Shown: positions 1,682 through 17,705, numbered from the stretch's first letter. The stretch is 64,000 bases of DNA from Candidatus Spongiisociaceae bacterium (GCA_965219685.1 CBDCOH010000002.1:2432001-2496000); one strand, 5' to 3'. The notes: a model not told the origin generated them from the letters alone. Translations and numbers: made by a program.

Positions 1682-1699
1682 CCAATATCGGGCTACGAT
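1682..1699 (+). promoter_or_regulatory. Operator variant CCAATATCGG followed by -10-like TACGAT (padR/chrA divergent region)
   Basis: 1682-1700 CCAATATCGGGCTACGATA differs by one base from 3139-3157 CCGATATCGGGCTACGATA. Confidence 0.6.
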
Positions 1700-1752
1700 A
1701 CCAGGCATCCGAATGGCGAACCGCGACGGACCAGCGACGAACAGGCGGCCAG

Positions 1753-2130
1753 ATGAGCAGGACCGACCGAATCGAGGGCCATCCCACCTTCGAGGCCCAT
1801 AGCAGGCTCTTCCGCGACATCCTGCTGGGTTTCGTTAGGGTGCATGTGCTCCACTGCGCCAGTAGAGGTCCCGTCTACGGGGTGGCGCTCAACGAGGAAC
1901 TCGCGGTCCACGGCTACAACCTGTCGCCGGGAACCCTCTATCCACTCCTCCACGGACTCGAGGACATCGGGTTTCTCGAGCGGACTCCGGAAGTCGTCGG
2001 CGGCAAGGTACGGAAGTACTACTCGCTGACCGACCGGGGACACCAGGCGCTTGAGGATCTCCGTTACAAGATTCGCGAGTTGGTCAGCGATGTGCTGGAT
2101 GGCGAGACCGTACCGGCGGGCTCCCGGTAG
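1753..2130 (+). CDS. PadR-family transcriptional regulator
   Basis: PadR wHTH signature: VLHCASRGPVYG...LSPGTLYPLLHGLEDIGFL...GKVRKYYSLTDRG. Confidence 0.92.
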   Translation: MSRTDRIEGHPTFEAHSRLFRDILLGFVRVHVLHCASRGPVYGVALNEELAVHGYNLSPGTLYPLLHGLEDIGFLERTPEVVGGKVRKYYSLTDRGHQALEDLRYKIRELVSDVLDGETVPAGSR

Positions 2131-2193
2131 CCCTACCGGACCGGGGCAGCGCCCGATGGGGAGCGGTCGGCTTCCCGAACGCCGGAGTCTCCT

Positions 2194-3132
2194 ATGAGGA
2201 TCGGGCTGATGGCATCGATCTCTGCTGCCGGCGAGCCGACCCTCGAGAACATCACGGCAACCATCGTCCGGGCTGAAGCAACCGGGTTCGACACCGTTTG
2301 GACTTCGGGACGGATGGACGCCCTGACGCAACTGGCTCTCGCCTCGGTACGCACTAACCGTGTCGAGCTTGGCACGGCCATCGTGCCCACCTATCCCCGC
2401 CATCCGCACGCCTTGGTCCAGCAGGCCCTGACAGTCCAGATCGCCTGCGGCGGCAGACTGGCGCTCGGCGTTGGGGTGAGCCATGACACTTCGATGTCAT
2501 CCCTTGGTTTCGACTGGTCTGCGCCGGTCCGCCACGCCCGCGAGTACCTGAGCGGTCTGAATGGGTTGCTGGCAGGAGCGGAGGTTACGTTCGAAGGGAC
2601 CGACTTCTCCCTCTCGAATGCAACCGCGCCGCTCGCCCACCTGACGGCCGTCCCCCCGGTTCTCCTGGCTGCGCTGGGTCCGCAGATGCTGCGGGTGGCC
2701 GGAACGCTTTCCGACGGGACCGTCCTCTGGCTCAGCGGCGCGCGCTATGTGAGAACGGTGGCGGTGCCGGAGATCGCGGCCGCGGCGAAACGAGCCGGCA
2801 AACCCCCGCCGCGGGTGGTGGCAGGAGGTCCGGTGTGCGTGACCGACGATGCGAAGGCATCCTACGAACGCGCCGAACGCGTCCTGCACGCCATCGGGAA
2901 CAGGCCGGTCTACCGGTCGGTACTGGACCTCGACGGTTCGGCCAGCCCGGCCCAGGTAGCCCTGATCGGCGACGAAGCCCTCGTCGGTGAACGTCTTGAC
3001 GAGTTGGCCGAGGCAGGCGCCACCGACTTCGCCGCCCAGATCCTCGCCGCCTCTCCCGAGGAGTACGAGCGGACCCATGCCTTCCTGGCGGGCCGCGCCG
3101 GGACTGGTCACCGTGCCGGCACGGGTCGGTGA
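2194..3132 (+). CDS. LLM-class (luciferase-like), probably F420-dependent oxidoreductase
   Basis: Motifs ELGTAIVPTYPRHP, GRLALGVGVSH and AALGPQMLRVAG are typical of actinobacterial F420-dependent LLM proteins. Confidence 0.85.
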   Translation: MRIGLMASISAAGEPTLENITATIVRAEATGFDTVWTSGRMDALTQLALASVRTNRVELGTAIVPTYPRHPHALVQQALTVQIACGGRLALGVGVSHDTSMSSLGFDWSAPVRHAREYLSGLNGLLAGAEVTFEGTDFSLSNATAPLAHLTAVPPVLLAALGPQMLRVAGTLSDGTVLWLSGARYVRTVAVPEIAAAAKRAGKPPPRVVAGGPVCVTDDAKASYERAERVLHAIGNRPVYRSVLDLDGSASPAQVALIGDEALVGERLDELAEAGATDFAAQILAASPEEYERTHAFLAGRAGTGHRAGTGR

Positions 3133-3156
3133 CAGCTGCCGATATCGGGCTACGAT
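3129..3156 (+). promoter_or_regulatory. Promoter GTGACA-N16-TACGAT with palindromic operator CCGATATCGG (3139-3148) in the spacer
   Basis: Perfect 10-bp palindrome between -35-like and -10-like hexamers, upstream of the ORF at 3203. Confidence 0.65.
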
Positions 3157-3202
3157 AACGGTTGGACGGCAGTCAAGGTGAGAGAAAGCGAGGAGGCCGG
3201 TT

Positions 3203-3616
3203 GTGGATTGGGATCTGTTCGTGGTGCATTGGCTTCACGTCGCCTTCGGGATCTTCTGGGCCGGGTCGATCGCGTTCACGAGGGTGACCCTGTTCCCGGC
3301 CCTGGCCACGCTTCCCAAGGAACAGGCAGTGGCGGCGAGGAACACCCTGTTGACGGGGAATGCGAAGCGGATCACGTTGATCACGGCCGCCGGGACGGTG
3401 ACAACCGGGATCCTGCGGGGCCTCATGACCGGTGTATTGGATCAGTTGGACACGTCCTACGGATGGATCTACATACTGTCGGGCGTCATCGCGATCCTGA
3501 TGTTCCTCTTCCTGCTCGACTGGTCACCCAAACCGGCCGTCCTACGGCACATCTACCTCGCAGCCTTTCCGGTGCTCTTCACGATGATGGTGCTGATGCG
3601 TTTCGGAGGGTTCTAG
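3203..3616 (+). CDS. Small 4-TM membrane protein (CopD/DUF2269-like N-terminus)
   Basis: 137 aa, four hydrophobic segments, N-terminal WLHVAFGIFWAG motif; GGAGG upstream of the GTG start. Confidence 0.65.
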   Translation: MDWDLFVVHWLHVAFGIFWAGSIAFTRVTLFPALATLPKEQAVAARNTLLTGNAKRITLITAAGTVTTGILRGLMTGVLDQLDTSYGWIYILSGVIAILMFLFLLDWSPKPAVLRHIYLAAFPVLFTMMVLMRFGGF

Positions 3617-4854
3617 GAGGCTGGTGGCCGGTCGAGCGTTTCCTCCTCCACCCGGCCGGCCATCAGGCACAAGGGGAGGGCGACCGCCGACGCTACCAAG
3701 AAGCCGAGCGACAGGAATGTCACCGTACCGTCATAGGCGCGGTCGATCAGCGATCCCAGTAGCGCCCCTCCTCCGGTCGATGTTGCCCCGATGATCGACC
3801 CGGCGGTTCCTGCCTGCCCGGCCATCGGATCGAGGGCCAGGCTGTTCAGGTTGGCGACAACCAGGCCGTGCATGGCGGCGAGCACCGATAGACATACCAG
3901 GAAAAGTGCGAACGTCGGCCTTCCCTCCCCTACCCAGGTTGCGGTCGTCAATGTGAGCGCGGCCGCCAAGTAGATCACGAGGATCCCGACAACCACCCGC
4001 TCGGTCGTAAGCGTCTCGACCAACGCCGCGTTGGCGATCATGGCCGTGGCCATGATCGCGGTAATCCCCCCGTATATCCAGGGGAACTGCTGGGCGCGAC
4101 CGAAGATGTCGGAGAAGATCAGTTCGGAACTCGCCATGTACGAGAAGAAGGCGCCGAAGCTGAACGCCATAGCGACCGTGTAGAAGACCGTGTTGCGGTT
4201 GCGGAGAACCCGCAGGACGGAATTGCCTAGACGGGACACCGACCACCCGACGGCTGGCCGGACCGCCCGCGTCTCGCCGAGCCGGGTCGCCCAAACAGCC
4301 ACCACCGCCGCGAGCCCCACGGCCAACCAGAACACTCCGTGCCAGGAGGTGACATCCGCGATGGTGGCGCCCGCAACGGGAGCGAAGACAGGAACGATGG
4401 TGAAGACGGCGAACACCGACGACATGATCCTCGCCAGGCGATCCCCGTCGAACAGGTCCCTCACGATGGCCAGCGCCACGATCCGGGGCCCGGCCGCCCC
4501 CACACCCCAGAGAGCCTGAGTCGCCAGGAGCAGCGAGAGAGAACCTACGCTCCCCGCGAGTACCGACCCGGCAGCCCCGAGCGCATAGATCGAGAAGCCG
4601 ATCCTCAGCGCCGGCTTCCTCCCCAAAGCATCCGACAACGGCCCGTAGACCAGCCCGCCGACGGACAGACCGACGATGTAGGCCGTGATCGCCCCTGCGA
4701 GGCGGTTCGAGTCCTCGGCCAGCCCGAGAACCTGGCGCATCTCCCCGAACGCAGGCAGGATGAGCCCCACGAGCGCTGAAAGCGCCATCGCAGAGGACAG
4801 GAGCACGATCAGTTCCCCTTCGCGCATGCTCCTTGCGGGTGGGGTCAGGGTCAC
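3613..4854 (-). CDS. MFS transporter, Bcr/CflA (DHA1) drug-efflux family
   Basis: About 12 TM segments; motif A GPLSDALGRKP; AIVRDLFDGDRLARIMS; APVAG. Confidence 0.88.
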   Translation of the reverse strand: MTLTPPARSMREGELIVLLSSAMALSALVGLILPAFGEMRQVLGLAEDSNRLAGAITAYIVGLSVGGLVYGPLSDALGRKPALRIGFSIYALGAAGSVLAGSVGSLSLLLATQALWGVGAAGPRIVALAIVRDLFDGDRLARIMSSVFAVFTIVPVFAPVAGATIADVTSWHGVFWLAVGLAAVVAVWATRLGETRAVRPAVGWSVSRLGNSVLRVLRNRNTVFYTVAMAFSFGAFFSYMASSELIFSDIFGRAQQFPWIYGGITAIMATAMIANAALVETLTTERVVVGILVIYLAAALTLTTATWVGEGRPTFALFLVCLSVLAAMHGLVVANLNSLALDPMAGQAGTAGSIIGATSTGGGALLGSLIDRAYDGTVTFLSLGFLVASAVALPLCLMAGRVEEETLDRPPAS

Positions 4855-4933
4855 GGCTCCTCCCGGCGGTCCGTCGCCAGAAGGCGGGGCACTCAGGCCT
4901 GGCCAGGATGACCGTTTCAGGCGAAGTCGGCTA

Positions 4934-4950
4934 CCGATATCGGATAATAT
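4934..4950. promoter_or_regulatory. Operator CCGATATCGG (4934-4943) next to -10-like TAATAT, between the divergent MFS and CCG genes
   Basis: Perfect palindrome in a short divergent intergenic region, 1 nt before TAATAT (4945-4950). Confidence 0.7.
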
Positions 4951-4979
4951 AAGGGTGGCCTGCCGGATGGAGAGACCTC

Positions 4980-6077
4980 GTGATCGACAAGACGAAGTTC
5001 GATGTAAAGGGCTACTACACGGCCATGGCCGAGAGCAAGTCGCTTCTGATCGCCCGCGACGACCTCAAGTGGACCGAGCGGTGGGTGGAGCCCGACCGTC
5101 CCTACGACGCACTGCTCGCCTACGGTTGCGCGGTCCAGCATACGCCACACCTGATGCAGGAGGCCGCCAACGTCCTCGACGTGCTGGGCGTCGACTACTT
5201 CGCGGTCACCGGCCGACAGTTCTGCTGCGGCCGGCCGTTCGAGAAGATGGGCAAGGACGGCGCGGTCGCCGACCGCATCTCCGACAAGTCCTACCGGCGG
5301 TTCATGTCCTACCGCCCCAAAGTCGCGGTGCAGTGGTGCGGCGCCTGCATGCGCCAATACCTCGACACGATCAGCGCCCAGCAGGATCCCCCGTTCGCGG
5401 TGGTCCACGTCACCAAGTTCCTTGCCGACCTGCTCGAGGCGAGAGCCGCCGAGGTCCCCTGGGTTAGAGAGGTGAAGACGCGGGTCCTGCTGGAGGCCCA
5501 CCACGACCATGCCCAAGCCGACATAGACACCGCCTCGATTCTCCGCATCTTCGAGATGGTTCCCGGTGTCGACTTCGCCGGGTTCGTCGAGCCGCCGTCC
5601 GCCGGCACCCCGTGCGACCTCGAGGGTCCCAAGGCTGTGGGGGTACTCAACAAGGTCGACACCGAGACCTTCCAGCGCGCCATCACGGAACTGGAGGACC
5701 AGTTGGAGAAGGCAGGGGCAGACACCTTGGTGACCCCCTACCACAAGTGCCAGATGGAGTGGTCGAAGCTCTCCACGAAGAAGCTGGCTATCCGCGAGTG
5801 GATCTCACTGGTTGCGGAAGCGATGGGGGTGGGCGTCCAGGACCGCTACACCATGTACTGGCATCTGGGCGATCCCGAGAGAATCGCCGAGGAGGCTCGG
5901 CCGCAGTGGGAGACCTGGGGCTGGTCCGAGGAGCAGGCGATCGAGGCCGCCCGGCGGCACTTTGTTCCAGAATACGCTATCGACGTGCACCACTGCGACT
6001 GCGGCGGCAGCGGCTGCGGGAGCGAGGGAGCCGACCTGCTCTGGCCGGGACTCGTCGACGTGGCCTCCCTAGTCTGA
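4980..6077 (+). CDS. Stand-alone CCG-domain (HdrB/GlcF-like) Fe-S protein
   Basis: YGC...QFCCGRP...WCGAC forms one CCG repeat; a degenerate second repeat (PCD...PYHKC); Cys/His-rich tail HHCDCGGSGCG. Confidence 0.75.
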   Translation: MIDKTKFDVKGYYTAMAESKSLLIARDDLKWTERWVEPDRPYDALLAYGCAVQHTPHLMQEAANVLDVLGVDYFAVTGRQFCCGRPFEKMGKDGAVADRISDKSYRRFMSYRPKVAVQWCGACMRQYLDTISAQQDPPFAVVHVTKFLADLLEARAAEVPWVREVKTRVLLEAHHDHAQADIDTASILRIFEMVPGVDFAGFVEPPSAGTPCDLEGPKAVGVLNKVDTETFQRAITELEDQLEKAGADTLVTPYHKCQMEWSKLSTKKLAIREWISLVAEAMGVGVQDRYTMYWHLGDPERIAEEARPQWETWGWSEEQAIEAARRHFVPEYAIDVHHCDCGGSGCGSEGADLLWPGLVDVASLV

Positions 6078-6105
6078 GCCCAGGGCCCTATCGATCGAAT
6101 CGGGT

Positions 6106-6464
6106 TCACAGCCGCACCGAGGGCAGCCGCCTCAACTCGCGGTTGACGGGATCGACATGGATTCCAGCAGACTCCAGCGCAGTGGCGCCCAACAGCGGCT
6201 CGGAGTGGGGTTTGCCGAAGATCACGGTCGCGCCGACCGTCTCTCCCATGATCTCGAACTCGGCAACCGTGACATCGAACCGGACTCTGTACCGTCGGCA
6301 AGCTCGTACCCGCGAGTGCTCCGTGGCGTCAGGCCTATGGATTCGAGCCACGGTCCGGGAACCGACGAGTCGATGGCTCCCGTGTCGACCAGAAACCGAC
6401 CTCGCCACTCCTGCTCCGGCGCGCCAGGATTCCGTACGATGATGTTTGCGTAGGTCATGCCCAT
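6106..6464 (-). pseudogene. Clan AA (retroviral-like) aspartic protease, frameshifted near 6285
   Basis: The N-half (FLVDTGA...YELADGTE) and C-half (VRFDVT...PLLGATALE...VDPVNRELRR) lie in different frames. Adding one base at ~6285 gives a ~119-aa intact protein. RBS AAAGGAG precedes ATG 6464. Confidence 0.8.
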
Positions 6465-6703
6465 GGACTCTCCTTTGGGGTAGCGACTATAATGCAGTTA
6501 ATCAGATATCAACAATTGCAGAATACTGTTACAACCGGGTCGTAAGGCTCGATTACTCAAACGACAACCAGCAATGACCCCCGGGCGCTGTTGCTCGTGC
6601 TGCCCTATCGATGCGGGTTCGAGCGCGCCGTCCGGTCGGCGACCGGACGGCCTCGCGTACCGGGATAGGCGCCGCCCCGCTATCGAACTCGGTATGGGGC
6701 CGG

Positions 6704-7528
6704 CTACAGAGCGAAGCCGAAGTCGCGGGCGGCCTCCATCAACTCCAGCTTGTCGTCGTGCGCGCCGGAGCGCCTACCGATGATGAGAGCGCAGTTCACC
6801 TCGAATGTTCCACCGGGGAACTCCCGCGTCCGGCTGCCCGGTATCACGATCGATCGCGGCGGGACCTCCCCTTTGTGGGTGACAACGGGGTTCTGAGTCA
6901 CATCGATCACATGGGTGGATCCCGTGATCGAGTTCTGGGCGGCGATGACCGCTCCTTCGCCGACGATGACTCCCTCCACGATGATCGAGCGGGATCCGAT
7001 GAAGGCGTCATCCTCAACGATCACCGGCCTCGCCCCGGCGGGCTCCAGCACGCCCCCGATACCGACCCCGCCCGAGAGGTGCACCCTGCGGCCGATCTGC
7101 GCGCCGCTGCCGACCGTTGCCCAGGTGTCCACCAGCGTGCCCGTGCCCACGTAGGCGCCGATGTTGACGAAGCTGGGCATCATCACCACGCCGGGCTCCA
7201 GGTGGCTCCCGTAGCGGGCGATACCGCCGGCCACCACCCGGTTGCCCCGGGCCTCGTAGTCGTGCTTGAGGGGAAGTCGGTCGTAGAACTCGAGCGGCCC
7301 GGCGTGCAGGGTCTCCATCTCGGTGACTCGGAAGTAGAGGTTGATGGCCTGCTGGATCCAGGCGTGAACGATCCAATCGCCGTCGACCTTCTCCGCCAGC
7401 CTGAGCGCACCCTGGTCGAGGAGAGCCACGGTCTGCTCGACGGCATCGACTTCGTGGTCCTCCATGGCAGACGGGTGCCGCGCGGCCGCGCCGATGGTCC
7501 GCTCGAGGTGGGTGACGGTCGTGCTCAT
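6704..7528 (-). CDS. dapD: 2,3,4,5-tetrahydropyridine-2,6-dicarboxylate N-succinyltransferase (E. coli-type DapD)
   Basis: Hallmark MPSFVNIGAYVGTGTLVDTWATVGSGAQIGRRVHLSGGVGIGGVLEP; RBS GAAGGAGG. Confidence 0.93.
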   Translation of the reverse strand: MSTTVTHLERTIGAAARHPSAMEDHEVDAVEQTVALLDQGALRLAEKVDGDWIVHAWIQQAINLYFRVTEMETLHAGPLEFYDRLPLKHDYEARGNRVVAGGIARYGSHLEPGVVMMPSFVNIGAYVGTGTLVDTWATVGSGAQIGRRVHLSGGVGIGGVLEPAGARPVIVEDDAFIGSRSIIVEGVIVGEGAVIAAQNSITGSTHVIDVTQNPVVTHKGEVPPRSIVIPGSRTREFPGGTFEVNCALIIGRRSGAHDDKLELMEAARDFGFAL

Positions 7529-7546
7529 CGGTCCTCCTTCCGTGCT

Positions 7547-9256
7547 TTACTCGGCGTTCACCGGCGGAGCCCCACGAGTGGGTTGGTCGAGAACGACATC
7601 GACGACGTAGGGCGTCGCGGCGTCCATCCCCCGCCGGATGGCCGACCCTAGGTCTCTCGCCGTATCCACCCTCTCGCCCGGCACTCCCAAGGAACCGGCA
7701 AGGGCGACGAAGTCCACCCCCGGCCCTTCGATGTCGATACCCGGTAGGTCCGACCCGCCTTCGCTCCAAGGTCCACCCATGCGGTTGACGATCAGTTCGA
7801 GAACCCGGTAGCCGCCGTTGTTGAGGATGACCGCGAGTACCGGTAGCCCGCGGTTCGCTAGGTTCCAGAGAGCGTGGGGATAGTAGAGAAAGGACCCGTC
7901 TCCCACTGCGACCACGATCTTGCGATCGGGCAGCCCGAGTTGAAGCCCGGCCGCGACGCCCACGGAGAATCCGAGCGATATCCCGTTCGCTCCCATGTAG
8001 GAGAGAGGATCGGCGAACTCGAGCACGTTCACGAACCAGGGCCGGTTCGAAATCGTCTCATCGACGAAGACCCCTCCGGCCGGGAGCGTATCCCGGATCG
8101 CCTTCGCCACCGCGCCCGTGGTCGGCCTCCGCTCGCGGGCCACTTGATCGACTCTCCGATCCCACGCCGCGCGGCGGGTATCAGCATCCGCGCGCACCAT
8201 CCTGGTTCTGGCAGCAACGGATCCGGGAACTCCCGGCCTCCTCTGGAGTGCGGTACAGAGGCGGCGCAGGTTCGATCCGACATCACCGAGCAGGGCTACC
8301 GACGCAGGGTGGTTCTTACCGAGTTCGCCGGGATGGTCGTCGACAGCCACCGTTCGCACATCGAATGGGATCAAGGGTCCGCCGCCGTCGTAGCGTGAGA
8401 CCGGCGCCGCCGCGGTGACACCGCACAGGAGCACGACGTCGGATCGGGCAAATCTGTCCCGCATCTCGGCCGCCAGGTTGGGCATCGGTCCCAGGTACAA
8501 GGGGTGGCGGGAGGGATAGTTCCAGAGCGTCGCATAGCCTTCGGTGTAGACGCGGGCCCCCAGGGCCTCGGCTATGGTCACGACCTTGTCCCATGCGCGG
8601 GCGTGGCCCACCCCGTCGCCGGCCACGATCATCGGCCTCTCGGCCGAGGCGAGCAAGTCGGCAGCTTCCCGGATCCCCGCTTCGTCCGCCATCGAAGCGG
8701 TCGGCGTGGTGACCCTCGCCTGGCCGAGACCGTCGTGCTTCTCCAGAAGGACGTTGGGCGGGACCGACACGAAGACCGGTGCGAACGGTGGGGTGACCAA
8801 CTCCTTGAAGGCCCGCTGCATGACCATCGGCAACTCCTCGAGGAAACGAACCTCGTAGGACCATTTGGTGAACTGCCCGACGATGGCGCGAAGGTCCGAG
8901 GTCAGGATGGGATCCTGGACCAGTAGACCGGTGTGATGCTGGCCGGCGGCTACCAGGAGAGGGACGCGGGCTCGATGGGCGTTGTAGAGGTTGCCGAGAC
9001 CATGAGCGACACCTGGGGTGACGTGGAGGTTCACCACGCCGACCTTGCCCGACGCTCGCGCATACCCGATGGCTTGGGCGACTGCGACGTCCTCGTGAAG
9101 GGAGAGGACGTACTCAATCGACGGGTAGTCGTTGCATCCGTCCACGAGGGGCAATTCCGTGGTGCCCGGGTTGCCGAAGATGTAGCGGACATCCTGGCAG
9201 ACCAGGTATTCGAAGAAGATATCCCGTCCGAGGGCTGTAGGCCGGCTACCCGTCAC
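7547..9256 (-). CDS. TPP-dependent 2-oxoacid decarboxylase (benzoylformate decarboxylase-like)
   Basis: IFGNPGTTELP, LHE, NLH and the TPP motif GDGSFLY...ILNNGGY; 569 aa. Confidence 0.85.
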   Translation of the reverse strand: MTGSRPTALGRDIFFEYLVCQDVRYIFGNPGTTELPLVDGCNDYPSIEYVLSLHEDVAVAQAIGYARASGKVGVVNLHVTPGVAHGLGNLYNAHRARVPLLVAAGQHHTGLLVQDPILTSDLRAIVGQFTKWSYEVRFLEELPMVMQRAFKELVTPPFAPVFVSVPPNVLLEKHDGLGQARVTTPTASMADEAGIREAADLLASAERPMIVAGDGVGHARAWDKVVTIAEALGARVYTEGYATLWNYPSRHPLYLGPMPNLAAEMRDRFARSDVVLLCGVTAAAPVSRYDGGGPLIPFDVRTVAVDDHPGELGKNHPASVALLGDVGSNLRRLCTALQRRPGVPGSVAARTRMVRADADTRRAAWDRRVDQVARERRPTTGAVAKAIRDTLPAGGVFVDETISNRPWFVNVLEFADPLSYMGANGISLGFSVGVAAGLQLGLPDRKIVVAVGDGSFLYYPHALWNLANRGLPVLAVILNNGGYRVLELIVNRMGGPWSEGGSDLPGIDIEGPGVDFVALAGSLGVPGERVDTARDLGSAIRRGMDAATPYVVDVVLDQPTRGAPPVNAE

Positions 9257-9283
9257 CGGAGGGTGTCTCCTTGAACTCGCGAA

Positions 9284-9325
9284 CCGATATCGGAGGACGT
9301 TACCGATGCACTAGGGTGGTGTCAA
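9284..9325 (-). promoter_or_regulatory. Sigma70-type promoter TTGACA-N17-TAACGT with operator CCGATATCGG (9284-9293) over the start site
   Basis: Minus strand: TTGACA (9325-9320), 17 nt, TAACGT (9302-9297); the perfect palindrome covers the predicted +1. Confidence 0.8.
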
Positions 9326-9371
9326 TCGGCGTCCGCCGGGCACGATCATCGCCGAACCAAAGGGTAGGACC

Positions 9372-10556
9372 ATGGAAGCATCGCGACGCGCCGGCCCCTT
9401 CGAGCTCACCGATGAACAGCAACAACTTCGAGCCCTGGCAGGCGACCTAGCGCGGACGATCTATGCGCCCCGCGCACGGGAATGGGATGCGGCCGAGGCC
9501 CACCTGCCCGATGAGGAGCGGCGGCGACTCGGCGAACTCGGATTGCTCGGTATCACGCTTCCCGAAGAGCACGGAGGGATGGGACGGCCGCTGATCGACG
9601 CCCTGATCGTGATCGAAGAACTGGCCAAGGCCACCCAGGTGGCCGCCTGGCCGGTGTTCGAAGCCACCACCGGACCCGCCCGCGTCATAGACCTGTTCGG
9701 CACCGAAGAGCAGAAGCGCCGCTGGCTCCCTCCGGTCTGTCGAGGAGAGAAGACGATCGCGGTTTCCATCTCCGAGCCGGATGCCGGTTCGGCCGCCACC
9801 GACATGTCCACCCGGGCGCGGGTCGACGGCGACGAGATCGTGATCGACGGCATGAAGCGATGGTGCTCCGGGGCCGGCTACTCCGAACAGTACCTCGTAT
9901 ACGTACGACTCGGGGAGGAACTCGGCTCCCGTGGCATCGGCGCCGTCGTCGTCGATCAGGACACACCCGGTCTCGAGTTCGGACCGCAGGAACGGCTGAT
10001 GGGGTTCCGGGGTATCGGATCGGCCGACATGTTCTTCAACGGGGTGCGGATTCCTCGTGAGGACCTGCTGGTCGCCAAGGGCGGATTCTCGAAGCTGTTC
10101 ACCGCGTTCTCCATCGAGCGTCTCGGCAACGCCACGATGGCCCTCGCGATCGGGCAGACGGCTTTGGACCGATCCGCCCGCTACGTACAGGAGCGACGCC
10201 AATTCGGACGGCCCGTCGCCGAGTTCCAACTCGTGCAGGCGGCCATCGCCGACATGGTCATGCAGGTCGAGGCGGCGCGGCTGCTCATCCATCGGGCTGC
10301 GATCTCGGCCGGGAGGGGAGCACCTCCGGCCTTGGAGGCGTCGGTGGCCAAGTGCTACGCCAACGAGATGGCCAAGCGGGTCTCCGATCTCGGCATCCAG
10401 CTACACGGCGGCTACGGCTACTCAGTCGAGTTCGACATGGAGCGCCTCCACCGGGATGCGCACGGTTGGGCTCTCGCCGGCGGTACCACCAACATCCAGC
10501 GGGTGAGGATCGCGTCGGAGTACCTGGGACGCCGCTTCGGCCAACGCAGGAACTGA
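9372..10556 (+). CDS. Acyl-CoA dehydrogenase family protein
   Basis: ISEPDAGS, GMKRWCSG, ERRQFGRPVAEFQ, QLHGGYGY, RDA...AGGT. Confidence 0.92.
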   Translation: MEASRRAGPFELTDEQQQLRALAGDLARTIYAPRAREWDAAEAHLPDEERRRLGELGLLGITLPEEHGGMGRPLIDALIVIEELAKATQVAAWPVFEATTGPARVIDLFGTEEQKRRWLPPVCRGEKTIAVSISEPDAGSAATDMSTRARVDGDEIVIDGMKRWCSGAGYSEQYLVYVRLGEELGSRGIGAVVVDQDTPGLEFGPQERLMGFRGIGSADMFFNGVRIPREDLLVAKGGFSKLFTAFSIERLGNATMALAIGQTALDRSARYVQERRQFGRPVAEFQLVQAAIADMVMQVEAARLLIHRAAISAGRGAPPALEASVAKCYANEMAKRVSDLGIQLHGGYGYSVEFDMERLHRDAHGWALAGGTTNIQRVRIASEYLGRRFGQRRN

Positions 10557-10562
10557 CGCTGG

Positions 10563-11747
10563 TCAGGGAAGGAGCGCGTCGGCGGCCGCTTCGATACGTT
10601 CCATCGCCTCGTCGAGGCGGGCATCGGGAATGGTGAGGGAGAACCTGACGTAACCCTCGCCGTAGCGGCCGTAGCCGATTCCCGGGATCGCCACCACCGC
10701 GGTGTGCTCGAGTAACCGGGTGAAGAAGTCCATGCTGCCGATCCCTGTGGGGAGGGGCGCCCACACGTAGAAGGTTCCGGGAGGCGGATCCACCTCCAGG
10801 CCGATCCGGCGCAGGGTGGCCACCACCCTGTCGCGTCTCCGCCGGTAGATAGTCATCTTGGCCCGTAACACGGAGTCGGGAGTCCCGAGGGCGACGATAG
10901 AAGCCTGCTGGACGGCGCCGAACACGCCGGCGTCCGTGTTCAGCTTCATGCTCCGGATCATGCCGACGATCTCGGGATTGCCGACCGCCATCCCGCTGCG
11001 CCACCCGGTCATGTTGTAGGACTTGGACAGGCTGTTGAACTCGACGGCGACGTCCTTGGCCCCGTCGACGGACAGGACACTGGGCGCCGGAACGCTTCCG
11101 AACGTGATATCTGCGTAGGGGTTGTCGCTCACCAGGATGGTGCCCGTCCGGCGGGCGAACTCCACCGCTTTCGCGAAGAACTCGAGCGAGGCGACCGCCG
11201 CAGTCGGATTGTTCGGATAGGAGATCCAGATGGCCCTTGCGCTGGTCGCGAGGTCCCGGGGAATCGAGTCGAAATCGATGAGGAATCCGTTCTCGGCCAG
11301 GAGCGGCACCTTTCGCACCTCGGCCCCCGCCAGGATGGCGGCCGCCTCGTAGGCGGGGAAGGCAGGATCGGGAACAAGGACCACATCCCCCGGGTTGAGG
11401 GCACCCATACAGAAGTGGAGGTTTGCCTCCTTGCTGCCCATCAAAGGCAGCACATCGGTTTCGGGATCGACGGCGACATCGAACCGGCGCTCGTACCAGG
11501 CGGAGATCGCGGAGCGGAACTCCGGCAACCCGCGGGCCAGGCCATGGGGATACTGGTGGTTCACCGGATCCTGGGCCGCTTCCAGGAGAGCCTCCACCAC
11601 ATGCGGCGGGGTCGGGAGGTCGGGGTCGCCCTTCCCCAGGTCTATCACATCCCGACCCGCCTGGAGGGCCTCCGACACCCGGCGATGTATCTCCACGTAG
11701 ACATAAGGCGGTAGGGATTCGAGGCGCTGAGATCTGGCCAGGTCCAT
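10563..11747 (-). CDS. Class I/II PLP aminotransferase, LL-diaminopimelate aminotransferase-like
   Basis: RLESLPPYVY, DLGKGDPD, GSKE, YPNNPT and PLP-lysine motif SLSKSYNMTGWR; start moved to ATG 11747. Confidence 0.85.
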   Translation of the reverse strand: MDLARSQRLESLPPYVYVEIHRRVSEALQAGRDVIDLGKGDPDLPTPPHVVEALLEAAQDPVNHQYPHGLARGLPEFRSAISAWYERRFDVAVDPETDVLPLMGSKEANLHFCMGALNPGDVVLVPDPAFPAYEAAAILAGAEVRKVPLLAENGFLIDFDSIPRDLATSARAIWISYPNNPTAAVASLEFFAKAVEFARRTGTILVSDNPYADITFGSVPAPSVLSVDGAKDVAVEFNSLSKSYNMTGWRSGMAVGNPEIVGMIRSMKLNTDAGVFGAVQQASIVALGTPDSVLRAKMTIYRRRRDRVVATLRRIGLEVDPPPGTFYVWAPLPTGIGSMDFFTRLLEHTAVVAIPGIGYGRYGEGYVRFSLTIPDARLDEAMERIEAAADALLP

Positions 11748-11782
11748 CGGCAGGTCCACGGAGTCGGCGGTCCCGGTGAGGC

Positions 11783-11804
11783 TAGCATCGAGACCCGATA
11801 TCGG
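11783..11804. promoter_or_regulatory. -10-like TAGCAT plus operator CCGATATCGG (11795-11804), between the divergent aminotransferase and PrpD genes
   Basis: Perfect palindrome begins at the predicted +1 of the plus-strand promoter. Confidence 0.7.
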
Positions 11805-11830
11805 TACACGAAACCGGGTGAGGAGCGGCG

Positions 11831-13225
11831 ATGGGGACGGGTGGGGTAGGCCATGGACAGCTGGAGCGAAGCGGCCGCGACTTCGCCCCGGTGCCTTACC
11901 CGACCCAGACCGAACGGCTCGCCGCACATGTGGTGGGGCTCCGTTACGACGACATCCCGCGACCCGCCGTGGACAAGATGAAGGACCACATCGTCCATCA
12001 CCTCGGACTGGCCCTGCGGGGTCTCGGCACCGGAGAAGGCCGCCAAGCCATCCGGATCGCCGAGTCCTTCCGCCATGGGGGATCTGCCACCATCGTCGGC
12101 AGGCGAACCCGGACGGCTCCCCTGGAGGCCACCTTCGCCAACACGACCCTCATGCGTTCCGACTTCCTCGACGATGTGCTCTTTCCCGCCGGTGTCCACG
12201 CCGCTCTCGTGACCCTCCCACCTGCGCTGGCCGTCGCAGAGGAACGCCATCGGTCCGGAAAGGAGTTGCTCACCGCCCTGGTCGCCGCCTACGACGTGAT
12301 CGGCAAGCTGGGAAACGCGGCCGGAATACGCTCGGCGAGGGCGCCGAGAAGACCGACAATTCCCTTCGGACCCTTCGGCGGCGCGGCGGCGGTCGCCCGC
12401 CTGCTCGGCTTGTCGAAACACCCGACCGCCCACGCCCTGGGCTACGCGGCGCACTCGGGCATGGGCCTCAGCGAGGGTGATTTCGTCACTCACTACTACA
12501 GCCTGGTGGCCAGGAACGGCCTGATGGCAGCGCTGGCGGCCGACCATGGGGGGCAAGCGGCCCTGGCGGTGATGGAGGGTCGGTTCGGCTTCTGGAACAC
12601 ATTCTTCACGGGAGTTCCCCCGACCCTGGACGACTCGCTCGCCACCTTGGGTAAGGAGTTCGAGATCATGAACGCCACGACCAAGCGTTACCCGGGTACG
12701 GGGCTGAATATCGTCCCGATCGAACTCACCACCCACTTGGTGGAGGACCATTCCCTGACCGTTGCGAATACCCGCTCGGTGACCGTGTTCCTGCCCGCCG
12801 AGCGGGAGAGCTTCGTCACGGGCCACATGCAGCCCCCCTTCGAAAGCGAAGCGGCGGCCCGCAGCTCGCTGGTTCTGGCCATCGCCACCATCCTCGCGAC
12901 CGGCCGGATCGACCCGGCGCTTGTCAAGCAGTACGCCCGTCCGGATCTGGTGGAACTCTGCAGCCGGATCCGCGTGGTCCTGGAGGAGGGCCATCCCATC
13001 CGCTACGCCCGGATCGAGATCGCCACCCGCGACGGACGCTCGCTAGCCGCCCAGGGACATGACCACTCCTTCGATCCGGCGGAGTGGCTCCGCTGGATCT
13101 CCATCGGCGGAACCGATGTCCTCGGACGCGATGCGCTCGCCGCGCTGGTGGAGACAATGGATCGCCTCGAAGACCTTGACGACGTAGCCGACTTGACAAC
13201 CTTGCTCCGACCTCCCGATAGTTGA
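11831..13225 (+). CDS. MmgE/PrpD family protein
   Basis: LRYDDIPRPAVDKMK, ATFANTTL...DFLDD...GVH, SGKELLTALVAAYDV, MEGRFGF, KRYPG; exact start uncertain. Confidence 0.85.
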   Translation: MGTGGVGHGQLERSGRDFAPVPYPTQTERLAAHVVGLRYDDIPRPAVDKMKDHIVHHLGLALRGLGTGEGRQAIRIAESFRHGGSATIVGRRTRTAPLEATFANTTLMRSDFLDDVLFPAGVHAALVTLPPALAVAEERHRSGKELLTALVAAYDVIGKLGNAAGIRSARAPRRPTIPFGPFGGAAAVARLLGLSKHPTAHALGYAAHSGMGLSEGDFVTHYYSLVARNGLMAALAADHGGQAALAVMEGRFGFWNTFFTGVPPTLDDSLATLGKEFEIMNATTKRYPGTGLNIVPIELTTHLVEDHSLTVANTRSVTVFLPAERESFVTGHMQPPFESEAAARSSLVLAIATILATGRIDPALVKQYARPDLVELCSRIRVVLEEGHPIRYARIEIATRDGRSLAAQGHDHSFDPAEWLRWISIGGTDVLGRDALAALVETMDRLEDLDDVADLTTLLRPPDS

Positions 13226-13251
13226 TAGATGATAGTTGATAATTGATAGTT
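13217..13251 (+). repeat. G/T-rich heptamer array (GATAGTT-type) x5
   Basis: GATAGTT GATAGAT GATAGTT GATAATT GATAGTT; contains the PrpD stop codon. Confidence 0.85.
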
Positions 13252-13305
13252 TCCGTTAGATCGGATCATTCACCATCCTCAATAGCAAGGCACTATCCAT
13301 CGATG

Positions 13306-13359
13306 AGCCACCAGCCATTAGCAAAACTCACAACTACTAACTAATAACTACCAACTATT
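13306..13359 (-). repeat. C/A-rich degenerate heptamer array (AGCCAYY x2, AACT-led x5)
   Basis: AGCCACC AGCCATT ... AACTCAC AACTACT AACTAAT AACTACC AACTATT; contains the racemase stop codon. Confidence 0.75.
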
Positions 13360-14082
13360 AAGTAGCTCCCGTCCGAACAGTGACTGATGGGTCGACGTCA
13401 CCAGGGAGTAGAGATCGAAGATGGGGAGGCCGGTCGCGCGCCGCATCGCGTTGCCCCAAGGAACGAAGTTCGTGCACTCGAGGACGATCGCGCCCACATC
13501 AGGATGCTCCTCGACCTGGCGGCGAGCCAGCGCCACCAGCTCTGCCTCCAGCACGGCGGTGTCGGCGACAACCGTCTGGTCGATGTACACCTGTGGGAAG
13601 ACGGCATCCCTCGGCATGGATGTGACGACCGTGTCGACTTCCCCCGGTTGCCAGCCCATGCCGACGAAGTGGCGGTCGGTGAGGTGCGGGCGTTCGGTCA
13701 GGATCCCGACCTTCCGTCCCGGCCCGACGAGCCGGCCCGCCAACGGGACCTGGAGCAGGGCGGAGGTGAGCATCGGGACGCCGACGCTCGCCTGCATCGC
13801 CCGGTGGAAGACCGATAGGAAACCACAGCTGGTGGTGATCGCCCTCACTCCCTTCGCCTCCAACTCTCTCGCGCCTTCGATGAAGGGGGCGAGCAGCGTC
13901 GGGTCGGGCTCCGAACCCATGATCCTGCTCGTGTCGGCCCCCTTCACGACCTTGTAGAGAACCGGGAACGGCCACGTCAGGGCGTTTCCCACGTCGCCGG
14001 GTGGTCTGGGACAGGTCGTGTCGAGCATGAGGATCCCGATGTCGTGGCCGTAAACGGTACGGCCGCCTTTCACTATCGCCAT
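13348..14082 (-). CDS. Asp/Glu/hydantoin racemase family protein (paralog 1)
   Basis: Two-Cys motifs ITTSCGF and LECTN; N-terminal GILMLDT..PR.PGDVGNA.TWPFPV; RBS AAGGAGG. Confidence 0.85.
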   Translation of the reverse strand: MAIVKGGRTVYGHDIGILMLDTTCPRPPGDVGNALTWPFPVLYKVVKGADTSRIMGSEPDPTLLAPFIEGARELEAKGVRAITTSCGFLSVFHRAMQASVGVPMLTSALLQVPLAGRLVGPGRKVGILTERPHLTDRHFVGMGWQPGEVDTVVTSMPRDAVFPQVYIDQTVVADTAVLEAELVALARRQVEEHPDVGAIVLECTNFVPWGNAMRRATGLPIFDLYSLVTSTHQSLFGRELLNSW

Positions 14083-14151
14083 CGCCCTCCTTCAGCCACG
14101 GGCGCCAGACCCCCACTCGGGAGCCCGAGACTATCAACCTGATTACGAACC

Positions 14152-14161
14152 CCGATATCAT
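14152..14161. promoter_or_regulatory. Operator variant CCGATATCAT between the divergent racemase and aconitase X genes
   Basis: 8/10 match to the palindrome, in the divergent intergenic region. Confidence 0.5.
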
Positions 14162-14198
14162 GATCCGAGTTCGAGTTTCGTCACCGGAACGGAGCGCG

Positions 14199-15476
14199 AT
14201 GAGGCTCACATACGAAGACCTCGAGATGCTGGACGGCAAGCAGGGAGAGGCCCGGCGCCGGGCGATGGAGGGACTCGTCCAGTTGGGCGCGGCCTTCGGG
14301 GCGGAAGACCTGGTGTCGATCGGGTACGCCCACGTGCATCCGGGCATGGCCATGTACGCCCAGGATGTGGAGTTGCTCGAGGAATTGGTGGATCTCGGCG
14401 GGCAGGTTGTGGTCCCGACCACGGCCAACGTCACCAACGTCGACACGGAGAACTGGAGGCAGACGGGAGCCCCCGAATCGCTGGCCCGGCTCCACATGCG
14501 GGGGGTACGAGCCCACAAGGCTCTCGGCTGCGTGAGCGCCATGACCTGTACACCCTATTGGGCCGGGCATTGGCCGACGTGGAACATGCACATGACCTCG
14601 ATCGAGTCCGGGGTCACGGTGTTCTGCAACTCGGTGCTCGGCGCCCGCTCGAACCGGGACGGTTTCTTCAGCGTCTACGCGGCATTGACCGGCCGCTATC
14701 CCCGCTTCGGCTACCACCTCGACGAGAACCGGGCGGGCACGCATCTGGTTACGGTGGAGACCCCCCTGGACAACACGACCGACTTCAGTTGCCTGGGCTA
14801 CCACCTGGGACCGCTGGTCGGGACCGGCGTACCGGTCTTCACCGGCTTCTCCAGGCGTCCCTCACTCGACGAACTGGACGCTTTGGGAGCGGGTCTCGCC
14901 ACAACCGGAGGCGTATCCATGTTCATCGTCCCCGGCATCACACCCCCGTACCAGTCGAAGAGCCAGGCCATGGCGGGCAATCGGGCTCCGGTGGAGATCC
15001 GCGTAGGGCCTCCCGACATCGACCGGGTATACGACTCCTTCTCCTCGTCTCCAGCCGGATCCCGGATCGACTTCGTCCATATCGGATGTCCCCATGCCTC
15101 CTTCCAGGAGATGAAGGAGTACACTGCGCTGCTCTCCGGACGGACCGTCCACCCCGACGTGGAACTGTGGATCACCACCAGCGGCGCCGTCAAGGCCCTG
15201 TGCGCACGGGAAGGATTGATCGACACGCTCACCGATGCAGGCGCCAAGGTCATAACCGACACCTGCCCGATGTCATGCCATTTCGCGCGGACAACCTCGC
15301 CGGATCCCGGGATCGTGCTTCCCGAGCCCCACATCCGCCGGATGGTCGTGGACTCCGCCAAACAGGCCAAGTACAGCCGCGACATGATCATGTGCGAGAC
15401 CCTCCTGGCAACGACCACCTCCGCAGTCGCGACCGCAATCTCCGGGCGGCTCGTGACAGGGAGGGCCCACCCGTGA
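14199..15476 (+). CDS. Aconitase X large (catalytic) subunit, DUF521
   Basis: MLDGKQGEARRRAM, MTCTPY, ES..FCNSVLGARSNR, AALTGRYP.FGYHLDENR, IGCPH, DTC; start at ATG 14199 after GGAG. Confidence 0.9.
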   Translation: MRLTYEDLEMLDGKQGEARRRAMEGLVQLGAAFGAEDLVSIGYAHVHPGMAMYAQDVELLEELVDLGGQVVVPTTANVTNVDTENWRQTGAPESLARLHMRGVRAHKALGCVSAMTCTPYWAGHWPTWNMHMTSIESGVTVFCNSVLGARSNRDGFFSVYAALTGRYPRFGYHLDENRAGTHLVTVETPLDNTTDFSCLGYHLGPLVGTGVPVFTGFSRRPSLDELDALGAGLATTGGVSMFIVPGITPPYQSKSQAMAGNRAPVEIRVGPPDIDRVYDSFSSSPAGSRIDFVHIGCPHASFQEMKEYTALLSGRTVHPDVELWITTSGAVKALCAREGLIDTLTDAGAKVITDTCPMSCHFARTTSPDPGIVLPEPHIRRMVVDSAKQAKYSRDMIMCETLLATTTSAVATAISGRLVTGRAHP

Positions 15477-15910
15477 ACGGTCGGTACCGGATCGCGGCGC
15501 GTGGCATCGTCCCCGGCAAGGCGTCGGGCCCCGCCCTCGTCTCGACCGAAGGCCTCTCCTTCCTGGGGGATCTCGACATCAGGAGCGGCCGGGTCGTGAA
15601 CAGGACGCACGAGATGCGGGGCCGCAGCGTGACCGGGACGGTTCTGGTGCTCCCGCACAGCGTGGGTTCGGCGGGGGCATGGCGTTTCCTCTACCAGTTG
15701 CAGGTACACGGCACGCACCCGGTGGCAATCGTCCAGAACGCTCTGCCCGACTCCTCGCTCGTCCAGGGCGCCATCCTCGGCGGTATACCGGTGGTATGCG
15801 AGCCCGAAGTGGACGTGACCACCGCGATCCGTTCGGGGGACACAGTCGAGGTAGACGGCGGGACGGGCGTCGTGAGCATATGGCCGGGACTATCGGGGGT
15901 ACCGGCATGA
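15473..15910 (+). CDS. Aconitase X small (swivel) subunit, DUF126
   Basis: GKASGPALVSTEGLSFLGDLD...GRSVTGTVLVLPHSVGS...IRSGDTVEVDGGTG; GTGA overlap with the large subunit. Confidence 0.88.
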   Translation: MNGRYRIAARGIVPGKASGPALVSTEGLSFLGDLDIRSGRVVNRTHEMRGRSVTGTVLVLPHSVGSAGAWRFLYQLQVHGTHPVAIVQNALPDSSLVQGAILGGIPVVCEPEVDVTTAIRSGDTVEVDGGTGVVSIWPGLSGVPA

Positions 15911-16635
15911 TCGACGGAGGACGAACGGTCTACGGCTTCGAACTCGGAGTCCTGATGCTGGACACCGTATTCCCACGGCTGGTCGGGGATGTGGGGAATG
16001 CCGGCACCTGGCCCTTTCCGGTCCGGTACCGGGTCGTACGGGGGGCGACCTCCCGCCGGGTCGTCCAGGAACCGGACGACGCGCTACTCGGCCTGTTCAT
16101 AGACGGCGCCAGGGATCTCGAGCGGGACGGAGTGCGGATGATCACCACCAGTTGCGGATTCCTCGCCCTTTACCAGAAGGAACTAGCGGCAGCCGTCTCC
16201 GTCCCGTTCCTCTCCTCTTCCCTGCTCCAGGTACCCGATGCCGCCCGGCTCATCGGGCCCGATCGCAAGGTCGGCATCCTGACCATGAGCCGGGACGACC
16301 TCACCGAGGCACACTATGCGGCGCTCGGGTGGTCATCGACCGACCTACCGGTGATCGTGTCGTCCTCCGCCCCCGGGGCACTGTTCTGGGAGACCTATCT
16401 GGTGGGCCGCCCGAGTGTCGATCCCGCGGCCCTCGAGGGGGAACTGGTCGACCTCTGTGGCGACCTCGTGGCCGGCAATCCCGAGGTGGGGGCTCTGGTT
16501 CTGGAGTGCACCAACTTCGGCCCGTTCGCTCCGGCTCTCCGCAAGGAGTTCGGTCTTCCGGTCTATGACCTGGCAACGCTCGTACTCCAGACCCGCATGG
16601 CGATATCGGGCGCCGGATTCGAGGCCATCCGATGA
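15907..16635 (+). CDS. Asp/Glu/hydantoin racemase family protein (paralog 2)
   Basis: Same ITTSCGF / LECTN motifs and N-terminus as 13348-14082; ATGA overlap at 15907. Confidence 0.85.
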   Translation: MIDGGRTVYGFELGVLMLDTVFPRLVGDVGNAGTWPFPVRYRVVRGATSRRVVQEPDDALLGLFIDGARDLERDGVRMITTSCGFLALYQKELAAAVSVPFLSSSLLQVPDAARLIGPDRKVGILTMSRDDLTEAHYAALGWSSTDLPVIVSSSAPGALFWETYLVGRPSVDPAALEGELVDLCGDLVAGNPEVGALVLECTNFGPFAPALRKEFGLPVYDLATLVLQTRMAISGAGFEAIR

Positions 16636-17705
16636 TCCCTGGACCTGATCAGACGCCCGACGGCATGGTCCTCGTCGCCGCGTCCCATCTGGAGGGATTC
16701 GCCTCGCGGGTCTTCCGGTCGCTGGGCATGGACAGCGACCATGCCGCGTTGATGGCGGAGCAGATCACCTGGGCCCATGCGCGGGGGCACTCCTGGCTGG
16801 GCGCACCCAAGATCATCCAGTACGGATCCAGGATCCGTACTGGGGCCACCTCACCGGTGGGCGAACCCCGGGTGATCTCGGAGACGGGTGCGTTCACGCT
16901 GCTCGACGCAGGCAACACGTTCAGCCAGATCTCCGGGGTCCGGGCCATGGACCTCGCCATCCGCAAGGCCGGGGAGATGGGCGCCGCCGTCTCGGTGCTG
17001 CGCAACACCACGTCAGCCGGAGCGCTCGGTTACTTCGCCATGCGTGCTGCCGACCGGAGGATGATCGGCATGGCCAACAACAACGCTCCTGCCCTGATGC
17101 CTCCGTGGGGGGGCACCACCAAGCTCATCGGCAACCAGGCCTTCGCCATCGCCAGCCCGGCCGGGAGGCACCAACCGGTCCTGCTCGACATGGCCCTGTC
17201 GGAGATGACCCTGGTCCGGTACCACGAGTACGAGGAACGCGGGGAGCAGCTTCCGGCAGGAGTCGCCCTCGATGCGTCGGGCCTGCCCACGACCGATCCG
17301 GCCGAGGCCCTCAAGGGCATGATGGTTCCGATGGGAGACCACCGCGGCTACGGGCTGGCGGTCATGTGGGAAGTGATCACGGGGGTGCTCTCGGGTTCGT
17401 TGCGATTCCTCGACGAGGTGACGATGCCGGACGTGTTCGACCGCCCGCAGGCGGTGAGCATGTTCTTTCTCGCGCTCAACCCGGAGATGTCGATGCCGTT
17501 CGAAGAATTCGCCGGGCGGGTCGACGGGCTCGTCGACGCCATGCACGGTTCCCCGCCGGCGCCCGGCGTGGAGCGCGTCTACGTCCCGGGAGAGCGGAGC
17601 GCCGAACTCGCCGGGGAACGCATGCGCAGCGGCATACCCATGCCCAGGGCTCTCATCGGCCGGTTGGAGGGCTTCGGTAACGAGGTGGGAGTGCCATGGG
17701 CCTGA
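16632..17705 (+). CDS. Ldh_2 (type 2 malate/L-lactate dehydrogenase, DpkA/AllD/ComC-like) oxidoreductase 1
   Basis: AMDLAIRKA, PPWGG, LLDMA, LDASGLPTTDP, GDHRGYGL, VYVPGE. Confidence 0.85.
   Translation: MIPGPDQTPDGMVLVAASHLEGFASRVFRSLGMDSDHAALMAEQITWAHARGHSWLGAPKIIQYGSRIRTGATSPVGEPRVISETGAFTLLDAGNTFSQISGVRAMDLAIRKAGEMGAAVSVLRNTTSAGALGYFAMRAADRRMIGMANNNAPALMPPWGGTTKLIGNQAFAIASPAGRHQPVLLDMALSEMTLVRYHEYEERGEQLPAGVALDASGLPTTDPAEALKGMMVPMGDHRGYGLAVMWEVITGVLSGSLRFLDEVTMPDVFDRPQAVSMFFLALNPEMSMPFEEFAGRVDGLVDAMHGSPPAPGVERVYVPGERSAELAGERMRSGIPMPRALIGRLEGFGNEVGVPWA

Follow-up and report, generated by a model that had tools for sequence, protein, structure and literature searches.

A 64,000-base stretch of DNA from Candidatus Spongiisociaceae bacterium (GCA_965219685.1, CBDCOH010000002.1:2432001-2496000; 66% G+C), referred to here in its entirety as the window, contains a 12.5-kb island of transport and metabolic genes in which six promoter regions carry the palindrome CCGATATCGG or a variant of it, and which encodes a regulator of the PadR family. 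We consider it likely, from comparisons among genomes, that the six sites are operators of an autoregulated PadR-family repressor encoded at 1753-2130, with about 18 genes under its control.

Genes were called by third-position G+C and named with Pfam and NCBIfam. The gene for the proposed binder, padR (1753-2130, plus strand), encodes a winged-helix protein of 125 amino acids (aa) with a PadR domain at residues 32-101 (PF03551; 67.1 bits against a cut-off of 27). Divergent from it, with 98 bp between the two genes as in the adjacency of ChrI type, lies chrA (407-1654, minus), which encodes a CHR-family (chromate-type) transporter according to Pfam and TIGR00937 (307.8 bits). Downstream of padR and in the same direction follows a gene for an F420-dependent luciferase-like oxidoreductase (2194-3132, plus; Pfam/NCBIfam), and then one for a predicted membrane protein of 137 aa (3203-3616, plus) without a match to any Pfam or NCBIfam family. 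This protein was considered as a hidden regulator and set aside, its sequence being hydrophobic and membrane-like. Next come an MFS transporter gene (3613-4854, minus; best match to the Bcr/CflA efflux type, below the cut-off) and a gene for a CCG-domain Fe-S oxidoreductase-like protein (4980-6077, plus; Pfam and homologue search), whose homologues carry only generic names such as Fe-S oxidoreductase or heterodisulfide-reductase-related. The genes for a thiamine-pyrophosphate (TPP) enzyme (7547-9256) and a DapD-like succinyltransferase (6704-7528) apparently form one operon (6704-9256, minus; Pfam/NCBIfam), and are followed by genes for an acyl-CoA dehydrogenase (9372-10556, plus; Pfam/NCBIfam), an LL-diaminopimelate-aminotransferase-like (DapL-like) protein (10563-11747, minus; NCBIfam, with the start at 11747 chosen from the sequence), an MmgE/PrpD-family protein (11831-13225, plus; Pfam) and an Asp/Glu-racemase-like protein (PRK07475; 13348-14082, minus; Pfam/NCBIfam). 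The AcnX large and swivel subunits, a second racemase-like protein and three Ldh_2 paralogues are encoded co-directionally at 14160-19925 (plus; Pfam/NCBIfam), in a row that probably constitutes one operon. As the sequence-only reading of this DNA had stated, PadR is the only regulator in the island: among the 50 open reading frames (ORFs) of the window scanned with Pfam, no other had a regulator domain. An RNA element or riboswitch was considered as another means of control and dropped, as the whole window gave no Rfam match at gathering thresholds.

The palindrome CCGATATCGG occurs four times in the 64 kb, at 3139, 4934, 9284 and 11795, against 0.13 copies expected, and none of 100 dinucleotide-preserving shuffles gave four or more copies. 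All four lie in promoter regions of the island and the remaining 50 kb of the window is free of them. These are exactly the perfect copies listed in the sequence-only reading, and the variant CCAATATCGG, with one mismatch, is likewise present at 1682, where it indeed has 18 of 19 bases in common with the 3139 site. With up to one mismatch there are nine occurrences, including the four perfect ones, against 3.6 expected, which is barely above chance; copies with two mismatches (51 against 47 expected) are at chance level and were dropped as evidence. The 10-mer alone therefore gives no support to the sixth proposed site, at 14152; the reported CCGATATCAT is there, but what speaks for the site is a longer box, TTACG-N5-CGATA at 14143, which scores 15.4 with the matrix described below. 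It had also been claimed that all six sites are intergenic and that five of them lie between divergent genes; the latter is correct, but the site at 14152 is not fully intergenic, since it extends over the A and T of the ATG predicted as the AcnX start (14160). A further word, GCGATATCGG at 16600-16609, lies inside the second racemase-like gene, with the first Ldh_2 gene some 30 nucleotides (nt) further on. It lacks usable outer half-sites and is absent from the 25 best matrix matches, and was therefore not counted as a site.

When the window sites are aligned, all of them extend to one side by N5 and then a CGATA-like word. Since TATCG and CGATA are reverse complements, the true element would be the inverted repeat TATCG-N5-CGATA, and this 15-bp unit, with half-site centres 10 bp apart, is the predicted recognition unit rather than the 10-mer, which holds the left arm of the box. 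Exact copies of the box are found in the window at 1686 and 3143; when one mismatch is allowed the number rises to five, every one within the island, where chance would give 0.93. At a distance of 13 bp, two boxes have two overlapping bases and CGATATCG in common, so that the palindrome of the sequence-only reading is the shared centre of a composite of about 28 bp, consisting of an outer half-site, N5, CGATATCG, N5 and a second outer half-site. All six window sites have this paired form, as do the sites in related genomes. The 10-mer thus does belong to the predicted operators, as had been proposed, but only as the centre common to two boxes and not as the operator itself.

The short subgroup of PadR proteins is characterised by a length of about 110-125 aa and a winged-helix domain plus a single C-terminal helix. 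With its 125 aa, the window protein has this one-domain form and aligns with the 113-aa chain of Rv3488 of M. tuberculosis, which is also the nearest solved structure (PDB 5zhc and others; E value 2.4e-21, residues 20-124). The best NCBIfam model is that of the Rv3488 family (NF053635, an equivalog model), to which it scores 95.1 bits; since the cut-off is 140, the window PadR is a relative of Rv3488 and not an equivalog. It belongs to an Rv3488/ChrI-like subfamily whose genes usually stand beside those of a ChrA or MFS transporter.

The PadR protein was scanned against 185,579 species-representative genomes, and the 80 loci analysed are the best 80 of 127 confirmed. The PadR of locus L001 is 99% identical to that of the window, and those of L002-L005 and L025 are 75-89% identical, four of these five genomes being labelled Acidimicrobiia. 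The remaining loci, with 45-64% PadR identity, come from Chloroflexota, Betaproteobacteria, Bacillota, Nitrospirota, Armatimonadota, Planctomycetota, Synergistota, two archaea and others. Four motifs are common to the 80 homologues (H-[IV]-L-H-H-A, HGY, SPGTLYP and GGKVRKYY), of which SPGTLYP and GGKVRKYY are the recognition-helix and wing motifs, and these the window protein shares with the homologues that have a box. In 43 of the 80 loci, which come from many phyla, the interval from -160 to +30 relative to where the PadR match starts contains an exact TATCG-N5-CGATA. The 15,083 bp close to the gene thus contain 45 exact boxes and the other 1,100,843 bp contain 14, which makes the density about 235 times higher near the gene, and six of the 14 are orthologous island sites in L001-L004, while most of the others precede the first gene of the same cluster. 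The spacing is specific as well: near the gene, spacers of 0-4 and 6-10 bp gave no copies and a spacer of 11 bp gave four, so that only the 5-bp spacer is enriched, and the everted arrangement was absent except for two copies at spacer 11. A core score of at least 10 is reached near the gene in 66/80 loci.

The boxes also keep their register. Among the 74 distant loci, counting core boxes with a score of at least 9 out of 22 and offsets of up to 45 bp, we found the 13-bp distance in 51 loci (59 pairs), a distance of 26 bp in seven and one of 39 bp in one, and only two pairs at any other offset. From this geometry we infer that each composite would hold two dimers.

A chrA homologue is present in 35 of the 80 loci, mostly directly adjoining the regulator. 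In the 45 loci without chrA the neighbour is an MFS transporter in 15, an ABC ATPase in three and an EB_dh-type protein in four, and in single cases a ChrB_N, ChrR-like cupin, TauE or cation-efflux protein. In the archaeal loci L016 and L074 (Methanobacteriota, Bathyarchaeum) the PadR homologue is followed by an MFS gene, and upstream there are box-like sites (core scores 14.9 and 16.2). Plasmids carry the arrangement too. A PadR homologue with 41% identity is annotated beside chrA in 1,906 plasmid records, and on the E. coli plasmid NZ_CP139796.1 the best matrix match of a 5.3-kb stretch (14512-19823, L081; score 24.0) is found about 55 nt before the chrA-padR operon. This gene pair sits between sul1 and IS6100/mph(A) and is common on enterobacterial plasmids. 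A Hydrogenophaga plasmid has two boxes 13 bp apart at the start of padR.

The palindromic matrix was built from the 74 distant loci by repeated refinement on their upstream regions. Of these loci 60 contributed a site, and the window and six close relatives were left out of the training. TATCG and CGATA carry 1.4-1.8 bits per position in it; the weaker flanks, Y-R-A and T-Y-R, therefore amount to a tendency toward CGATATCG at each arm. The ten best matches in the window all fall within the six regions of the sequence-only reading, and the next best match scores 4.8, with 4.7 for the next one outside these regions. At a threshold of 12 there are six matches in the window against 0.18 expected from 200 first-order random sequences, whose maxima had a mean of 9.1 and a 95th percentile of 14.9. 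These matches outline six composites. Putative operator A, between chrA and padR (1673-1700), combines CATCG-N5-CAATA with an overlapping TATCG-N5-CGATA, the latter being the exact box at 1686-1700 (score 21.0). Putative operator B, before the membrane-protein gene (3130-3157), contains the exact box TATCGggctaCGATA at 3143-3157 (24.7) and a further match at 3130 (8.8). Between the MFS and CCG genes, putative operator C (4925-4952) reads AGTCG-N5-CGATATCG-N5-TATAA and scores 7.4 (at 4925) plus 3.9. Putative operator D, between the TPP-enzyme and acyl-CoA dehydrogenase genes (9275-9302), has the box TATCGgaggaCGTTA at 9288-9302 (23.4) and a second match at 9275 (10.4), and putative operator E, between the aminotransferase and MmgE/PrpD genes (11786-11813), consists of CATCGagaccCGATA and TATCGgtacaCGAAA, with scores of 17.5 at 11786 and 13.4 at 11799. 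The sixth composite, probable operator F between the racemase-like and AcnX genes (14143-14170), is made up of TTACGaacccCGATA and TATCAtgatcCGAGT (15.4 at 14143 and 8.1 at 14156).

The island is syntenic in L001-L004. A search for footprints upstream of orthologous genes, which the sequence-only reading had put forward as a check, revealed that in four to six related genomes the boxes are kept while flanks and lengths diverge. Between chrA and padR, caaTATCGggctaCGATAcc is kept in 7/7 sequences and the other 60-110 bp are unalignable. The region before the membrane-protein gene varies from 83 to 383 bp, and only the box and its immediate flanks are common to 5/5. Operator C is kept in 5/5, with scores of 21.3, 18.2 and 16.9 in L001-L003 and a perfect double box (29.1) in L004, and operator D is kept in 5/5 regions. 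For operator E, the central 8-mer and the left arm are kept in L002 and L003; the corresponding aminotransferase/PrpD region of L004 has no site, and the aminotransferase gene is degraded there. For operator F, the loci of the relatives end before the site. In L025 (10001-10373), the padR orthologue is split into two pieces in different frames (residues 1-64 and 60-124), perhaps because of a frameshift or an error in the assembly; this locus lacks the island genes downstream, and still has the chrA/padR box.

To the left of chrA, the relatives have a FhuF-like gene, two more CCG proteins, a DAO-type oxidase and a split CHR transporter pair, together with paralogues of the racemase-like protein, the 137-aa membrane protein and PrpD. 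This left extension spans about 3600-8650 in L001 and about 70-8650 in L002, and is represented by 580-607 in L004. Between the oxidase and a CCG gene lies an extra strong box (24.5-27.9). Since both the island and an extra box continue to the left of chrA in the relatives, the window would show only part of the predicted regulon. Outside this group, the L006 genome (Jatrophihabitans, of a different class, with 58% PadR identity) has an exact box before its homologue of the CCG-protein gene. In the same locus, at 14940-15000, CCGATATCGG directly follows TTGACA-N18-TAACAT ahead of a peptide-type ABC permease operon, 100 bp from the exact box.

These data also bear on the identity of the binder. 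Exact boxes are present in the window only nearest padR (1686 and 3143), and the other four sites have degenerate outer half-sites, as might be seen if the sites were real operators bound by a paralogue of the PadR subfamily or by an unrelated factor, with the local PadR controlling only its own promoter and chrA. We regard this as unlikely, given that the matrix derived from distant PadR loci nevertheless gives 9288 and 11786 scores of 23.4 and 17.5, that the MFS/CCG site is a perfect box in L004, that the CCG homologue with an exact box in L006 has a PadR homologue in the same locus, and that no further regulator domain turned up among the ORFs scanned.

The position of the boxes relative to predicted promoters provides a further line of evidence. 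The right half-site of operator A falls within a -10-like TACGAT (1694-1699). The site at 3139 lies 7 nt past the stop codon of the luciferase-like gene, ahead of the co-directional membrane-protein gene, and a consensus scan identified there a promoter-like GTGACA-N16-TACGAT (3129-3156, plus), of which operator B occupies the spacer and the -10. For the TPP-enzyme operon, the sequence-only reading had given TTGACA-N17-TAACGT on the minus strand (9325-9297), and reading the sequence bears this out; its -10 is the CGTTA half-site of operator D, and with 3/6 matches in the -10 it falls below the threshold of the promoter scan. Among the 60 distant box-bearing loci, an exact TTGACA lies at most 70 nt upstream in 16, and the first box begins 17-30 nt after it in 15 of these 16. 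Such a position of a box over the predicted -10 to +1 is a placement of the repressor type. PadR might instead act as an activator or dual regulator at some sites, for example at the acyl-CoA dehydrogenase promoter, where the box at 9284 lies near the -35, upstream of a -10-like hexamer TAGGGT read on the plus strand; with arrays that begin over the -10/+1 in the distant loci and a box that fills both spacer and -10 at 3129-3156, we hold this to be quite unlikely. As far as is known, characterised PadR proteins are repressors.

That the palindrome might be non-regulatory, i.e. a restriction or methylation target, a HIP-like dispersed repeat or a duplicated promoter cassette, is suggested by its perfect symmetry around GATATC, which we take to be an EcoRV-type hexamer, and by the near-identity of the 1682 and 3139 sites, but is extremely improbable, since GATATC occurs only 13 times in 64 kb, five of these inside the sites (the four perfect 10-mers and 14152, the 1682 variant being without it), the remaining 50 kb contains no copy of the 10-mer, the six sites have unrelated flanks beyond the box, and the box tracks the regulator gene across phyla at a fixed spacer and register.

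Taken together, the frequency of exact boxes (43/80) and core boxes (66/80) at homologous genes, the matrix, the footprints and the overlap with promoters support the proposal that these are repressor sites bound by the adjacent PadR; PadR binding, repression rather than activation and the existence of an inducer are each predictions from sequence comparison. As we envisage it, a PadR dimer would read the 15-bp TATCG-N5-CGATA, with boxes arranged in overlapping arrays of fixed 13-bp register, and dimers would occupy the composites over the -10/+1 or the spacer. As the composites cover these promoter parts, bound PadR would exclude RNA polymerase. The predicted targets are padR itself, the divergent chrA and about ten further transcription units of the transport and metabolic island. 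Repression would thus block the padR-oxidoreductase unit, chrA, the membrane-protein gene, the MFS and CCG genes, the TPP operon and the genes for acyl-CoA dehydrogenase, aminotransferase and PrpD, and probably also the racemase-like gene and the AcnX-Ldh_2 row. A ligand would then release the repressor. For a relative, the one inducer that has been suggested is chromate; if we may speculate, the imino- or amino-acid-type enzymes and Fe-S proteins of the island make a different signal at least as likely.

Several observations weigh against this interpretation. The matrix, although trained on other genomes, was seeded with the consensus seen in the window, and in 14 of the 80 homologue loci no box near the gene reaches a core score of 10. 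The family matrix shows no preference for the C/G at the two ends of the 10-mer (C 0.23), and so accounts only in part for the perfect 10-mer at four sites. In the window itself operator C scores low, at 7.4 and 3.9 against random-sequence maxima that average 9.1, and it rests on the relatives, while operator F (15.4) is just above the 95th percentile of these maxima (14.9). At the acyl-CoA dehydrogenase promoter, with the box near the -35, activation would also be possible, and the sites could be shared with, or taken over by, a paralogue of the subfamily from another part of the genome.

A broader proposal can be put forward tentatively, and as a whole it seems to us more doubtful than probable: that the Rv3488/ChrI-like subfamily uses one operator code, with tiling in a 13-bp register around a shared CGATATCG, in bacterial phyla and some archaea, and that in this Acidimicrobiia lineage what is usually a local transporter switch has in addition been recruited as the master repressor for an island that measures 20 kb or more and has seven or more operators in the relatives. 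The extended island encodes two sets of transporters of the CHR family, several Fe-S proteins of the CCG type and enzymes of the amino- or imino-acid type. If the proposal were true, CHR transporters and their regulator would respond here to something other than chromate.

Some further features of the region deserve mention. The genes of the three Ldh_2 paralogues (malate/L-lactate dehydrogenase type 2) follow one another at 16632-19925, downstream of AcnX. In the A+T-rich gap between the converging PrpD and racemase-like genes lie two heptamer arrays about 80 bp apart, GATAGTT in five copies (13217-13251) and AACTACT in 4.3 copies (13332-13361), which are roughly reverse complements of each other, the first containing two promoter-like matches. 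The segment 6100-6560 may contain a gene remnant: an 80-aa ORF on the minus strand (6222-6464) corresponds to the initial half of a clan AA aspartic protease (TIGR03698, at 32 bits under the cut-off), and past the stop codon that terminates it the sequence still looks related. The A+T content is unusually high in the adjoining stretch, which has TGGACT-N18-TATAAT at 6464-6493. Housekeeping genes, including those for topoisomerase I, the nuo operon and AdnAB-like helicases, occupy the rest of the window. At 36210-42334 some of the nuo genes look fused, as in a 669-aa ORF with NuoE-type and NuoF-type domains, and in a second ORF of 562 aa the 49-kDa domain takes up residues 292-562 only; starts were assigned mechanically, and overlaps may inflate the lengths.

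We believe that these predictions will be useful beyond the present locus. They offer a concrete operator for a widespread and little-studied PadR subfamily that includes the relatives of Rv3488, the ChrI regulators and the plasmid chrA-padR module, and they join about 18 genes of an uncultured Acidimicrobiia lineage in one predicted regulon, which provides a handle on a common substrate or inducer. They would also describe how a transporter regulator that normally controls one operon has expanded to a multi-operon regulon. A TATCG-N5-CGATA operator, 13-bp arrays or a multi-operon regulon for this subfamily were not found in the searched literature, where a prior description is nonetheless possible, and a search for PadR, chromate and electrophoretic mobility shift assays found nothing there. 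The accessible text of the papers searched, including PMC6624303 and PMC11566425, describes no PadR operator under the strings TATCG or CGATATCG.

An autoregulated PadR repressor beside a transporter gene is a textbook kind of system, and the predicted regulon can be compared with several known ones. The operator of classical PadR/LmrR-type regulators is ATGT-N8-ACAT, a motif that does not occur in the 64 kb (0.23 expected). With these systems the window is predicted to share a promoter-overlapping inverted repeat, a winged-helix dimer, autoregulation and a neighbouring transporter gene, whereas the half-site and spacing differ, being TATCG-N5-CGATA here. To our knowledge, overlapping arrays of boxes in a 13-bp register are not known from classical PadR/LmrR systems. 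Rv3488, the closest solved structure, has the same short one-domain architecture, but the window PadR, at 95.1 bits, stays under the cut-off of 140 for that family. In Bacillus cereus SJ1, the PadR-family gene chrI and chrA1 form one operon and are both induced by chromate; the same source notes PadR-chrA pairs in many genera, and its accessible text defines no operator for ChrI (PMC2936356). Like ChrI, the regulator described here is a short PadR-family protein encoded beside a CHR-family transporter gene; unlike the chrI-chrA1 operon, as far as the available part of that source describes it, chrA and padR of the window are divergent and the predicted operator recurs at five further promoters of metabolic genes. 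The enterobacterial plasmid module (NZ_CP139796.1) resembles the window in its chrA-padR pair, with a 41% identical PadR and a box (24.0) just before chrA, but it is a two-gene operon with a single operator on a mobile element, in contrast to the chromosomal arrangement found here, with six predicted operators in the window and more in its relatives.

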